Below the pieces are notes generated by a model that was given only the letters and a program-made list of their open reading frames with translations, was not told the origin of the DNA and did not search any database. From an uncultured Candidatus Melainabacteria bacterium (GTDB lineage Bacteria; Cyanobacteriota; Vampirovibrionia; Gastranaerophilales; Gastranaerophilaceae), in assembly GCA_934717745.1 (NCBI GenBank), contig CAKUZB010000007.1, forward strand, positions 3,299-67,298: a stretch of DNA of 64,000 bases, written 5' to 3'. Positions 13,051 through 30,975 of the stretch are shown in pieces. The position numbers and the translations under genes were made by a program. Positions within the stretch are counted from its first letter, which is position 1. The number at the start of each line of letters is the position of its first letter.

Positions 13051-14295
13051 CTATTCAAAAAAACTGTCAATATCGTTTACGCTTAATGACAAATCTCTTA
13101 ATTCATCATGTACTTTATATATATTGTCTACCGAAACATGCAAATTTTCAAGTAAATCTAAAGGAATGTTATCATAATTTAAATTTTCGTTACTCATTAT
13201 CGAATCAACTATCAAATTTGCAAGGTAAACAATTGAGCATTCTTTTTTAAACTTGAAACTATCTAGCGGATTGTGATGATATGTGATTATGTCGCAAAAA
13301 ATTTCAGGCAAATTCCACGAATATGCAACAATATTCGCTATTTCGCAATGATTTAAACCGCAAAATTTTTCTTCTGCTTTCATTGTTTCAGCATCAGAAA
13401 TGTTTTCTTGTTTGCAAACCTGTGAATAATTTTGCCAATCATATTGAGCCAAAATAATTTTTCCAATATCGTGCAAAAATGCTGCGGCAAAAATATCTTC
13501 TTTAAAATTTGATTCTACAAATTTTGATAACATTCTAGTACCTGATGCTACTAACAAAGAATATTTCCAAAATTCTTTGTAGTTAAAAGTTTGGTTATTT
13601 TTAACCACAAACATTTTATAAATACTTGCAGATAAAATAACACCTTTTATTGTTGTAAAACCTAAAATAGCAATTGCTTGTTGAATTGTAGAAATTTGTT
13701 TTGGAAAACCGTAATATGCGGAATTTACAAGTTTTAAAACTCTTGCGGTTAAACCAATGTCATTTGATATAACCTTTGATAAATCATTAACAGAAGCATT
13801 TTCATCTTGCATAATTTCAATTGATTTTGTAATTATTTCCGGCAAAGATGGAATATTTTTTATTTTTTCTGTTATAGTTGTTATTTTTCTTTCAAATTGA
13901 AGTGATTTTTCTTCTGTATCTTGAGTTAGATAGATAATTTCAACATTCATACGATTAAATTCATCAATAATCCAATCTCTAAAATCCTTGTTTCTGCTGA
14001 TTATATTTGGATTTGCCACAATTAATTTATCAGATGCCGAAATTTGACTGCTCATCATATTTAACAAAACCGGTTTGAAATCATCTCTGGTACTAGTTTC
14101 TTCGCAGATTTCATTCAACTCAAGTCCATGAATTTTGCAGAAATTTTTAATATCAGCCGACTGTTTTGACAATTCCTCGGTTAATATATTTTCATTAATT
14201 TCATAACTGCAAATATATGCTATAGTTCTCAATCGTATATCCTTATTTGAATTCAAAAAGATGTTTTGAATTACATTTTCTAAAATTTTCAACAA
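13051..14295 (-). CDS. HDOD-domain signalling protein with degenerate resolvase-like N-terminal domain
   Basis: C-terminal HDOD pattern (LPSLPEII..NDLSKVISND..LTARVLKLVNSAYYG..FLHDIGK). The N-terminal ~110 aa aligns by eye to the serine-recombinase catalytic-domain layout. The track start is TTG and overlaps the upstream TPR gene. An alternative TTG at 14232 has SD AAGGA. Confidence 0.7.
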   Translation of the reverse strand: MLKILENVIQNIFLNSNKDIRLRTIAYICSYEINENILTEELSKQSADIKNFCKIHGLELNEICEETSTRDDFKPVLLNMMSSQISASDKLIVANPNIISRNKDFRDWIIDEFNRMNVEIIYLTQDTEEKSLQFERKITTITEKIKNIPSLPEIITKSIEIMQDENASVNDLSKVISNDIGLTARVLKLVNSAYYGFPKQISTIQQAIAILGFTTIKGVILSASIYKMFVVKNNQTFNYKEFWKYSLLVASGTRMLSKFVESNFKEDIFAAAFLHDIGKIILAQYDWQNYSQVCKQENISDAETMKAEEKFCGLNHCEIANIVAYSWNLPEIFCDIITYHHNPLDSFKFKKECSIVYLANLIVDSIMSNENLNYDNIPLDLLENLHVSVDNIYKVHDELRDLSLSVNDIDSFFE

Positions 14296-16084: not shown

Positions 16085-16122
16085 ACCCTCGTTTGTTGCG
16101 ATTTGGACGGGGGTTCTTTTTT
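16085..16122 (+). terminator. orphan plus-strand hairpin with T-run upstream of paralog A
   Basis: ACCCTCG-16nt loop-CGGGGGT followed by TCTTTTTTATTT. No upstream plus-strand gene. Confidence 0.35.
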
Positions 16123-16266
16123 ATTTGCGTTACAAAACTTAATAAAAGTCTGAAATCATGTCAATTATTGCGTTTGGAAATACTTTATATGTTTGTAAGG
16201 CTAGAAATCTTACGAAATTGGTTTAAATTGGTTAAAAAGATAACGCAAGTTATTGGAGGTTTTAAA

Positions 16267-16974
16267 ATGTCAGTAAATTTTGGTATGGTAAATCCGAATG
16301 CAGGAATGAGCATAATGGATATGCCAATCCTTAACGCATACTCTGGTACAGGAATGATGAATCCTGCAATGAGTTATGGATACGGTGCAGGAATCGGCAC
16401 TTTTGGCAATGTATTGAACCCTCAATATCAAATGCAAACAATGCAACAATGGGATAATTTTGGAATAAGCCGTCAGGTTGCTCAATATCAAAACCAAAAC
16501 AATGCTCAATTCCAAATGGCATCTCAAACAGAAAATATTTCAAGACAAATTCAAATCTTGAGAACTGAAATTCAAAACAACAATCAAGATAACGTTAAAG
16601 CGGAATATAATAAACTTTTAGCAGCGGTTAAAGCCTCTTATGGTTCACAAATTGCATCAGGAGTAAGTCCAGAAGAAGCAGAAGCACAAGTTAAAGCATA
16701 TGCAGAAAGATTATATGCTCAACAAACAGGCTCATATATAACAGATGATATTAAAAATAATTCATCAAGTTCATTCTGGTCAGGCGTTAAACAAATCTTG
16801 ACATTCGGCTTTGGCAACAAAACAACTGCTGATGAAAATATCTCAATGATTAACGGCACAAAACAAACTACCGCTTCTAAAGCATCTAGAGTTGCAGGTA
16901 ATGTTGTTGGCGGTTTATTCGGCGGTTTACTTGCTGTTGGTTCGTTCTTATTACTAAAAGGTAAAAAAGCATAA
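16267..16974 (+). CDS. tail-anchored Q/N-rich protein, paralog A (hypothetical)
   Basis: Start at ATG 16267 behind SD GGAGG (the track's N-terminal extension was rejected). Met/Gly/Pro/Asn-rich N-terminus and a C-terminal TM VVGGLFGGLLAVGSFLLL-KGKKA. The 3' 580 bp are identical to the 17199 gene. Confidence 0.75.
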   Translation: MSVNFGMVNPNAGMSIMDMPILNAYSGTGMMNPAMSYGYGAGIGTFGNVLNPQYQMQTMQQWDNFGISRQVAQYQNQNNAQFQMASQTENISRQIQILRTEIQNNNQDNVKAEYNKLLAAVKASYGSQIASGVSPEEAEAQVKAYAERLYAQQTGSYITDDIKNNSSSSFWSGVKQILTFGFGNKTTADENISMINGTKQTTASKASRVAGNVVGGLFGGLLAVGSFLLLKGKKA

Positions 16975-16977
16975 GAC
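16394..16977 (+). repeat. 584-bp perfect direct repeat, copy 1 (3' part of paralog A)
   Basis: Line-by-line comparison with 17350-17933 shows no mismatch. The offset is 956 bp. Confidence 0.9.
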
Positions 16978-17013
16978 TCAATAAATAAGAAGTTTTATTA
17001 TAAAGATATTTTT

Positions 17014-17058
17014 AAGTAGTAAAAGTTAGTCTTTTAAAGTCTAATTTTTACTACTTTG
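17014..17058 (+). terminator. terminator after paralog A
   Basis: Imperfect ~18-bp hairpin AGTAGTAAAAGTTAGTCT / AGTCTAATTTTTACTACT followed by TTTGTTT. Confidence 0.5.
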
Positions 17059-17198
17059 TTTACAAAACTTCACAAAACCCTAAAAACATGGCAATTATTG
17101 CGTTTCAAAATACTTTACATGTATGTAAGGAAAAATAAACTTACAAAAAATGGTTTAAATGGTTTCATAATAACGCAAGTTATTGGAGGTTTTAAAAA

Positions 17199-17930
17199 AT
17201 GACAGTTAATTTTGGCATGGCAAATCCATACATGTATAACATGGATGCAGACACAATTATGAATGCCCCAATATTAAATGCCAATACCGCAATGGGTGGT
17301 ATGGGATACGGATATGGAATGGCAGGAATGACAACTCCATATACCGGTGTCGGCACTTTTGGCAATGTATTGAACCCTCAATATCAAATGCAAACAATGC
17401 AACAATGGGATAATTTTGGAATAAGCCGTCAGGTTGCTCAATATCAAAACCAAAACAATGCTCAATTCCAAATGGCATCTCAAACAGAAAATATTTCAAG
17501 ACAAATTCAAATCTTGAGAACTGAAATTCAAAACAACAATCAAGATAACGTTAAAGCGGAATATAATAAACTTTTAGCAGCGGTTAAAGCCTCTTATGGT
17601 TCACAAATTGCATCAGGAGTAAGTCCAGAAGAAGCAGAAGCACAAGTTAAAGCATATGCAGAAAGATTATATGCTCAACAAACAGGCTCATATATAACAG
17701 ATGATATTAAAAATAATTCATCAAGTTCATTCTGGTCAGGCGTTAAACAAATCTTGACATTCGGCTTTGGCAACAAAACAACTGCTGATGAAAATATCTC
17801 AATGATTAACGGCACAAAACAAACTACCGCTTCTAAAGCATCTAGAGTTGCAGGTAATGTTGTTGGCGGTTTATTCGGCGGTTTACTTGCTGTTGGTTCG
17901 TTCTTATTACTAAAAGGTAAAAAAGCATAA
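17199..17930 (+). CDS. tail-anchored Q/N-rich protein, paralog B (hypothetical)
   Basis: Same SD and leader as paralog A, divergent first ~50 aa, identical C-terminal ~193 aa. Confidence 0.75.
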   Translation: MTVNFGMANPYMYNMDADTIMNAPILNANTAMGGMGYGYGMAGMTTPYTGVGTFGNVLNPQYQMQTMQQWDNFGISRQVAQYQNQNNAQFQMASQTENISRQIQILRTEIQNNNQDNVKAEYNKLLAAVKASYGSQIASGVSPEEAEAQVKAYAERLYAQQTGSYITDDIKNNSSSSFWSGVKQILTFGFGNKTTADENISMINGTKQTTASKASRVAGNVVGGLFGGLLAVGSFLLLKGKKA

Positions 17931-17933
17931 GAC
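17350..17933 (+). repeat. 584-bp perfect direct repeat, copy 2 (3' part of paralog B)
   Basis: See copy 1. Confidence 0.9.
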
Positions 17934-17964
17934 AAATCTCAATCAAAAAATCATAAATCATAAC

Positions 17965-17994
17965 AAAAATCAGCCTATATAGGCTGATTTTTGT
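17965..17994. terminator. bidirectional terminator between paralog B and ferritin
   Basis: AAAAATCAGCCTATA/TATAGGCTGATTTTT palindrome. Confidence 0.7.
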
Positions 17995-18011
17995 TGAATA
18001 ATGATGTAATT

Positions 18012-30814: not shown

Positions 30815-30975
30815 AAAATTCTAAAAGCATGATGAGGAGTGATTTTCAACGAGTTTTAGCAATATTAACTTATGTAACAAAAATAACAATGTTTCGTCTA
30901 AAACTAGCAAAAATCATGAGTTTTCGGACTTTATATAAATGTAGGTAAGTTTATATATTATATTGTGTGGAAACA

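Follow-up and report, generated by a model that had tools for sequence, protein, structure and literature searches.

Among bacteria, the tufA/tufB genes and the ribosomal RNA (rRNA) operons are examples of concerted evolution. Homogenisation can also be partial: babA/babB, sabA/sabB and homA/homB of Helicobacter pylori and omp2a/omp2b of Brucella are partial-conversion mosaics, in which an identical segment lies beside a diverged one that defines function. In cyanobacteria, the psbA copies, which encode D1, are kept nearly identical by conversion, and their differences, which cluster towards the N-terminus and in promoter and leader regions, yield differently regulated isoforms. Interlocus gene conversion among bacterial paralogues has been surveyed by Wang and Chen (2018; PMC6053082). 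The pair described here lies in a 64,000-nucleotide (nt) stretch, the window, of contig CAKUZB010000007.1 from an uncultured Candidatus Melainabacteria bacterium (assembly GCA_934717745.1), a member of a lineage of human-gut, non-photosynthetic relatives of cyanobacteria. Two adjacent genes in direct orientation, copy 1 and copy 2, share an identical 3′ part behind unlike 5′ coding ends (the heads), and comparison across the genus shows that they evolve in concert, very probably through recurrent intrachromosomal gene conversion after one old duplication. The genes and the shared block are:

16267..16974, + strand: copy 1 gene, an open reading frame (ORF) of 235 residues with head type 1 (MSVNFGMVNPNAGMSIMDMPILNAYSG...); orthologues in 12 species
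17199..17930, + strand: copy 2 gene, an ORF of 243 residues with head type 2 (MTVNFGMANPYMYNMDADTIMNAPILNANTAMGG...)
16394..16977, + strand: block in copy 1, very probably converted, delimited by repeat search, base-by-base extension and cross-species comparison
17350..17933, + strand: block in copy 2, very probably converted, delimited by repeat search and base-by-base extension

How sharp is the division between the two parts? A sequence-only reading of the window had described a 584-bp identical 3′ block, and base-by-base match extension returns exactly this: 16394–16977 equals 17350–17933 at an offset of 956, and mismatches start directly outside both ends. The block holds the final 193 codons together with the stop codon and 3 non-coding nt, as had been estimated, and its zero differences include the synonymous sites and the 3 nt past the stop. 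The abrupt boundary that the same reading placed inside the ORF is equally real: divergence is immediate at the 5′ end of the block, beyond which the first 127 nt of copy 1 (42 codons) and 151 nt of copy 2 (50 codons), close to the 45–50 diverged codons first reckoned, are ~67% identical and separated by several indels. The junction falls where the indel-rich, low-complexity head meets a conserved ...GTFG..NPQYQMQ... segment. Further upstream, the leaders recover to ~80% identity, and the three shared blocks that had been named in them were all found by repeat search and alignment; what the leaders partly conserve is a set of promoter elements from a genome-wide class, together with two small hairpins in the 5′ untranslated region (UTR). 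The spacer behind copy 1 bears no relation to the sequence behind copy 2. Two causes of the identity were considered and set aside: (i) selection at the protein level, because synonymous and non-coding sites are homogenised too; and (ii) GC-biased conversion, because the G+C content at third codon positions (GC3) of the block, which is 0.17–0.25, shows no trend with conversion activity.

Comparison across 13 species lends strong support to conversion of the C-terminal module, first proposed from the window alone. In 12 other species-level genomes of the genus the tandem pair is assembled in full, with the same architecture and junctions, and alignment of the two units within a genome gives the same profile again and again: ~40–90% identity in the leader, ~40–70% in the first 120–200 nt of the gene and 100% in the remainder. 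The longest identical runs between paralogues measure 582, 506, 545, 505, 727, 329 and 473 nt in seven species and 122, 129, 55, 55 and 48 nt in five others, and the 5′ ends of the long runs differ by species, falling between nt 119 and 208 of the gene. In the C part, paralogues are 97.6–100% identical in 8 species, whereas orthologues are only 66–88% identical. The nearest species (genome G018) provides the clearest example: its 552-nt C part differs from that of the window at 67 sites (synonymous divergence, dS, 0.75; ratio of nonsynonymous to synonymous divergence, dN/dS, 0.036), and at 67 of 67 sites both paralogues agree within each genome; all 55.5 synonymous differences are common to both copies. 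A tree of the C part accordingly pairs the two copies by genome in 11 of the 13 species. In G014 and G009, which are sister species, each copy groups with its positional counterpart in the other genome (dS 0.62 between paralogues and 0.15–0.19 between orthologues); thus, the duplication is older than these two species, and conversion has lapsed in them. The N parts behave in the opposite way: in the window, those of the two paralogues are saturated at synonymous sites (dS 2.35), whereas each matches its positional counterpart in G018 at 93% and 97% nucleotide identity (dS 0.31 and 0.12). Tracts vary between lineages and occasionally run through the head, as in G012, where identity begins 133 nt before the ATG and takes in the entire 5′ part, and where head type 2 is present in both genes. 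The 3′ ends of the identical run have decayed in G012 and G020, and one copy each is found in G006, G008 and G019.

These observations make the following history very probable. Duplication of a ~0.93-kb unit, comprising promoter, leader and gene, took place at the base of the genus or close to it; since then, the direct repeats would have recombined by homology and repeatedly overwritten the 3′ 0.5–0.6 kb of one copy with that of the other, a non-reciprocal gene conversion that is presumably RecA-dependent. Because of this repeated overwriting, the encoded Q/N-rich helix, helical core and transmembrane anchor evolve in concert and are currently identical. On the 3′ side, the tract is limited by the end of the duplicated unit, and with it of homology, 3 nt past the stop codon. 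On the 5′ side, extension of the heteroduplex would be expected to abort at the indel differences of the low-complexity head, and/or selection may maintain two distinct heads. The net outcome would be two stable variants of a ~45-residue N-terminus on one identical anchor.

If conversion repeatedly overwrites the 3′ parts, why do the heads stay apart? A passive stop, in which heteroduplex extension and mismatch-repair editing are halted by diverged, gapped sequence, is sufficient to set the 5′ limit. That the limit is purely of this kind, and owes nothing to selection for two functionally different heads, is a serious contender, though it falls somewhat short of being probable. In its favour, the 5′ ends of the identical runs scatter along the edge of the indel-rich region, G012 has two type-2 heads, and three species have one copy. 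Constraint on each head is suggested by their conservation: between the two nearest species, heads and leaders are 92–98% identical, as against 82–90% for the block or the flanking genes, and a motif, MD/N-x-P-I/L-L-N, is kept in both heads and across the family. To the nearest species, the low synonymous divergence of the heads (the dS values given above, against 0.75 for the converted block) is accompanied by leaders that are 95–98% identical over a background of 82–90%; the pattern suggests constraint acting on the nucleotides of the promoter, UTR and first codons.

Several points weigh against the proposed history as a whole. A 5′ boundary held by selection and one held only by sequence divergence would both be compatible with the data, and G012 shows no obvious harm from the loss of head type 1. 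The assignment to a RecA-type pathway draws on the general behaviour of repeats longer than 200 nt and is to that extent provisional. In the deeper-branching G007, G014, G009, G016 and G013, the head types lack clear orthology to those in the window; two stable head types hold only for the closer half of the genus. Finally, perfect identity may be slightly overstated, since a collapsed repeat traversed twice by a de Bruijn assembler could erase differences of ~1% or less; the near-identity of the two blocks is safe, and their perfect identity is an assembly-level statement.

Could the pair instead be young, the product of a duplication of very recent date after which positive selection drove the 5′ ends apart quickly, with no conversion at all? 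The identical 3′ parts do resemble those of a young duplicate, and low-complexity heads can evolve fast, but this explanation is very improbable: the paralogous N parts are saturated, with dS at 2.35; the heads are 93–97% identical to their counterparts in G018, which has the same layout around its own, different and internally identical block; and independent events in ~10 species with the same junctions are implausible.

An assembly artefact, in which the assembler either doubled a single real gene or gave two diverged genes the same sequence, is just as unlikely, although the source invites the suspicion: the genome (1.85 Mb, 32% G+C) is a metagenome-type assembly in 23 contigs, de Bruijn assemblers reuse a collapsed repeat unitig and thereby make identity perfect by construction, and many public contigs break at the block. 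The sequence-only reading had itself cautioned that collapse or duplication during assembly should be excluded, and the structure was sought in contigs found by exact look-up of both proteins, from several independent human-gut metagenome assemblies. A 6-kb contig (L029) covers both copies with the same two identical 584-nt blocks. Contigs L022, L028, L030 and L031 end 101, 55, 77 and 55 nt into the block, which is typical behaviour of k-mer assemblers at an exact repeat; one contig of 986 nt (L033) equals the 956-nt period plus 30, and another (L032) is a single repeat unit in circularly permuted form. The unique junctions (head 1 to block, block through spacer to head 2, and block to the ferritin side) recur in independent assemblies made with different assemblers from different samples; the repeat is therefore a property of the DNA in many samples. 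The same tandem layout in 12 other species genomes speaks for the same conclusion, and so do the 2–18% differences that several species retain in the block, because assemblers evidently preserve divergence where it is present. One low-coverage contig favours the artefact: in L024 (ERZ4561379, 1419 nt, 2x coverage), head 1 and the block run straight into the sequence that follows copy 2. Either the assembler took a wrong path here, or the contig records a true recombinant with one copy, the deletion expected from unequal exchange.

Programmed N-terminal diversification of a cassette, shufflon or diversity-generating-retroelement-like kind, with the identical block as constant region, deserves almost no credence: the sharp constant/variable boundary and a weak serine-recombinase-like Pfam match of the gene at 13051–14295, 2 kb upstream, would fit it, but the genome holds no silent donor cassettes or template repeats at the DNA or protein level and no further copies of either head beyond the two genes (blastn-short and tblastn), a repeat scan of the window found no inverted repeats flanking the heads, the exact window proteins recur in 12 and 8 contigs from several samples with identical heads (by construction, as the look-up was by exact protein), and the heads are 93–97% identical in nucleotide sequence to those of the nearest species, more conserved than the flanks. 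The cassette-like diversification that the sequence-only reading had entertained is therefore not borne out; there are two head types only, both conserved in the closer species.

The family to which the pair belongs is distributed narrowly. Among the genomes sampled from other genera of Gastranaerophilaceae, 15 of 16 and 32 of 32 have one copy; two copies were found only in the genus of the window among the genomes sampled, and ~118 sampled genomes of other families of the class lack the family; public data hold ~346 clusters at 50% identity. From these sequences it appears to be a membrane-anchored family without annotation, specific to one GTDB family (Gastranaerophilaceae by database names). 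Its neighbourhood offers little further guidance: across relatives only an upstream TPR gene is conserved, and the gene downstream of copy 2 is a convergent ferritin gene.

What kind of protein is kept identical in this way? Residues 1–56 are predicted to be disordered, are rich in Met, Gly, Asn, Tyr and Pro and contain only 1–2 charged residues; the MD/N-x-P-I/L-L-N motif lies in this segment of both heads. Residues 51–110 are ~35–43% Q+N. An AlphaFold model of the 243-residue copy 2, built on a 125-sequence alignment (mean predicted local distance difference test score, pLDDT, 77.5; >90 for residues 70–170), contains a Q/N-rich helix of 52 residues, along with four or five shorter ones and, at 210–238, a C-terminal helix. 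The only hydrophobic segment is at the extreme C-terminus (NVVGGLFGGLLAVGSFLLL, Kyte-Doolittle 1.92, followed by KGKKA); hydropathy peaks at residues 220–238 of 243, and the N-terminus is not hydrophobic. The C-terminal helix is a hydrophobic Gly-zipper segment, and 14 relatives have Gly-zipper Pfam matches. Hydropathy and model agree with the tail-anchored, Q/N-rich protein envisaged in the sequence-only reading, in that a single transmembrane helix within ~30 residues of the C-terminus and no N-terminal signal peptide are predicted; the topology is a prediction only. Longer relatives have a strongly basic stretch on the C-terminal side of the transmembrane segment, which under the positive-inside rule would place the large N-terminal part outside, while the orientation could be either way. 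A tentative guess at function, rather doubtful at present, is a membrane-tethered scaffold whose disordered, uncharged head presents the short motif (..MD/N-A/M-P-I/L-L-N..) to a partner.

Similarity searches with the proteins and model of the window gave no significant match in Pfam, NCBIfam, a PDB sequence search or two Foldseek searches. There is one faint lead: a profile of 125 family members finds annexins as its best PDB matches (E 1.6e-4), aligning kayAeklYaqatGksLtdDIrenGdssF with the helix C-D-E part of three annexin repeats over 23–30 residues, and 5 of the 125 members touch PF00191 (best E 1.3e-4). The window's own proteins have no PF00191 match, the GxGT loop motif was not seen in them by eye, Foldseek with the confident model returned no significant annexin match, and hhalign against a genuine annexin-repeat family of the same genome found nothing. 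An annexin repeat comprises five helices over ~70 residues with a GxGT...D/E calcium loop, of which the profile match takes in helices C–E only. The protein is not classed as an annexin: it stays below the family threshold, and neither the loop motif nor a significant structural likeness was seen.

Each copy has its own promoter and leader and is probably transcribed separately, and several hairpins punctuate the locus:

16129..16146, + strand: upstream box of copy 1, GTTACAAAACTTAATAAA, with two TTAACA-like half-sites ~10 nt apart; conserved in all leaders of the genus
16160..16170, + strand: GGCAAT box of copy 1, here GTCAATTATTG, at a fixed 22-nt start-to-start distance to the ACTTTAY box
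16180..16191, + strand: −10-like box of copy 1, ATACTTTATATG, from motif analysis
16194..16214, + strand: hairpin TGTAAGG...TCTTACG at the putative mRNA 5′ end of copy 1, from minimum-free-energy folds
16240..16253, + strand: hairpin ATAAC-GCAA-GTTAT of copy 1, with a GNRA tetraloop, directly before the Shine-Dalgarno sequence GGAGG (16255–16259)
17059..17121, + strand: promoter of copy 2, with TTTACAAAACTTCACAAA (17059–17076), GGCAATTATTG (17090–17100) and ATACTTTACATG (17110–17121)
17124..17189, + strand: 5′ UTR of copy 2, with hairpin TGTAAGG...ACTTACA (17124–17145), a TGGTTTAAATGGTTT tract, GNRA hairpin (17170–17183) and Shine-Dalgarno sequence (17185–17189)
17014..17056, + strand: AT-rich 21-bp hairpin after copy 1, an inverted repeat; likely a terminator or 3′-end stabiliser
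17962..17995, no strand assigned: perfect 17-bp palindromic hairpin in the gap between copy 2 and the ferritin gene, from inverted-repeat and terminator scans; likely a bidirectional terminator
16085..16114, + strand: G+C-clamped hairpin and T-run upstream of copy 1, from the terminator scan; there is no upstream gene on this strand

Transcription would start at the 5′-end hairpin. In this hairpin all cells pair in 19 leaders, with a loop of 7–27 nt and one double and four single compensatory changes. The second hairpin has a loop of GCAA, GAAA or GUAA in 18 of 28 leaders, and 87% of cells pair. Covariation lends the leader hairpins weak support (2 pairs with double changes). Both are specific to the pair and may be mRNA-stabilising or translation-tuning elements of a strongly expressed gene. 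Neither leader has a match in Rfam, even at E up to 10. A long-range RNA pairing, CAATTATTGCGTT/AACGCAAGTTATTG, was discarded for lack of covariation: the upstream strand reads GAG, GGG, GAC or GAA opposite an unchanged partner.

Among the remaining hairpins, the one after copy 1 is replaced by a different hairpin sequence at the same place in relatives. The surrounding 17011–17063 gives a sub-threshold Rfam match to the plastid psbA-2 3′UTR model (33 bits against a gathering score of 55.8; E 7e-4), most likely a chance similarity of AT-rich hairpins. The hairpin at 16085–16114 stands ahead of copy 1 as the terminator of copy 1 stands ahead of copy 2; it is conserved there, loop included, in at least 12 relatives and could be an insulator, a small-RNA 3′ end or a relic.

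The promoters of the pair belong to a class that recurs across the genome, with the architecture TTAACA-N4-TTAACA-like box ... AAAAAGGCAATTTTT-N11-AAATACTTTAYATA and a fixed distance from GGCAAT to ACTTTA. The strict two-box pattern has 23 matches in the genome and 0–5 in simulated genomes; nearly all matches to the motif lie 30–90 nt upstream of an ATG. Within the window the motif occurs at 16129–16191, 17059–17121 and 30906–30945, the GGCAAT box of copy 1 being a T variant that falls outside the strict pattern. The TTAACA-like box also precedes other promoters of the class, and the full architecture stands ahead of the single-copy orthologue in another genus. Which sigma factor would read it? 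The genome encodes eight sigma-70-family genes, five of them alternative. The class is not of the housekeeping type, because tRNA genes have canonical TTGACA-17-TATAAT promoters, nor of the flagellar sigma-28 type, because no flagellin promoter carries the GGCAAT/ACTTTA motif; a sigma-28 regulon was accordingly rejected, one flagellin promoter (contig C1) having a TAAA...GCGATAA-type site and the others none. A sigma-54 reading of TGGCAATTATTGC also failed: the distance from GG to GC falls 2 nt short, and the remaining promoters of the class do not conserve TTGC.

The genes downstream of these promoters are mostly orphans, and their products often start with M-T/S-x-N-F and have N/F/G-rich heads. 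Those with recognisable domains include two cell-wall hydrolases, a CHAP protein (E 1.5e-16; C1, forward strand, 339870) and an SLT protein (E 1.5e-7; C4, forward strand, 12134), both with F/N/G/S-rich N-terminal regions of ~100 residues and no recognisable signal peptide. A 358-residue protein encoded downstream of the motif at reverse-strand scan position 60957 of C1 has a genuine annexin-type repeat (..YVAMKGAGTDNSKL..; phmmer E 1.7e-5, and E 6e-12 for the family profile against PDB annexins), and one of its relatives has a precomputed PF00191 match; bacterial annexins are rare. Two more leaders that nearly match those of the pair, and that share 77 nt with each other, lie exactly at contig ends, C4:152226–152297 (3′) and C15:1–72 (5′, reverse strand), and the same contig-end copies exist in G005 (C14 and C21). 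An rRNA promoter was dismissed as their identity, since in G001 and G010 the leader enters a protein gene (MSFLVLFARK...). They probably mark another multi-copy gene under this promoter class, one that is dispersed, is kept identical and breaks assemblies.

Might the heads and the promoter class be parts of one system? The products of the class mostly have uncharged heads rich in N, F, G and M, and several are anchored at the C-terminus. A speculative joint reading, which is improbable as it stands, would place the pair in a family-wide regulon of ~23 genes under a hitherto undescribed promoter class (TTAACA-N4-TTAACA ... AAAAAGGCAATTTTT-N11-AAATACTTTATATA), with the heads as targeting signals for an undescribed export or envelope-assembly route. 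If it were true, two heads on one converted body would mean two differently addressed versions of the same anchor.

The partial concerted evolution at this locus is real, unusually clean and genus-wide, by a mechanism already known in kind; the gene family and the promoter class, both undescribed, are more interesting leads than the conversion itself. The former is noteworthy because it is single-copy in nearly all sampled Gastranaerophilaceae genomes and probably has a strong dedicated promoter, and yet is without annotation; the latter defines a co-regulated set of orphan genes that might guide functional work on these organisms. As to conversion, G014 and G009, in which it has lapsed, constitute a natural control, which suits the locus to estimates of conversion rate and tract length in an uncultured lineage of the gut.

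How, then, does this pair compare with the systems described elsewhere? As in known cases of bacterial concerted evolution, paralogues within a genome are closer to each other than to their orthologues in many species, homogenisation extends to synonymous sites, and high expression of the genes is probable. Unlike tufA/tufB and the rRNA operons, the gene is only partly homogenised, its copies are adjacent direct repeats, it is an orphan of one bacterial family, and the time depth is that of a genus rather than hundreds of millions of years. The mosaic form is shared with the bab, sab and hom pairs of H. pylori and with omp2 of Brucella; these, however, encode surface adhesins or porins on which host-immune selection acts and which often switch from strain to strain, whereas the heads here are stable between strains and species and give no sign of antigenic variation. 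The psbA likeness lies in the same phylum in the broad sense and in homogenised copies that differ at the N-terminus and in the leader. By this analogy, differential regulation of the pair is no more than a possibility, its leaders being ~80% identical; the psbA copies, in contrast, are dispersed and have known function and regulation, while the two genes here are adjacent.

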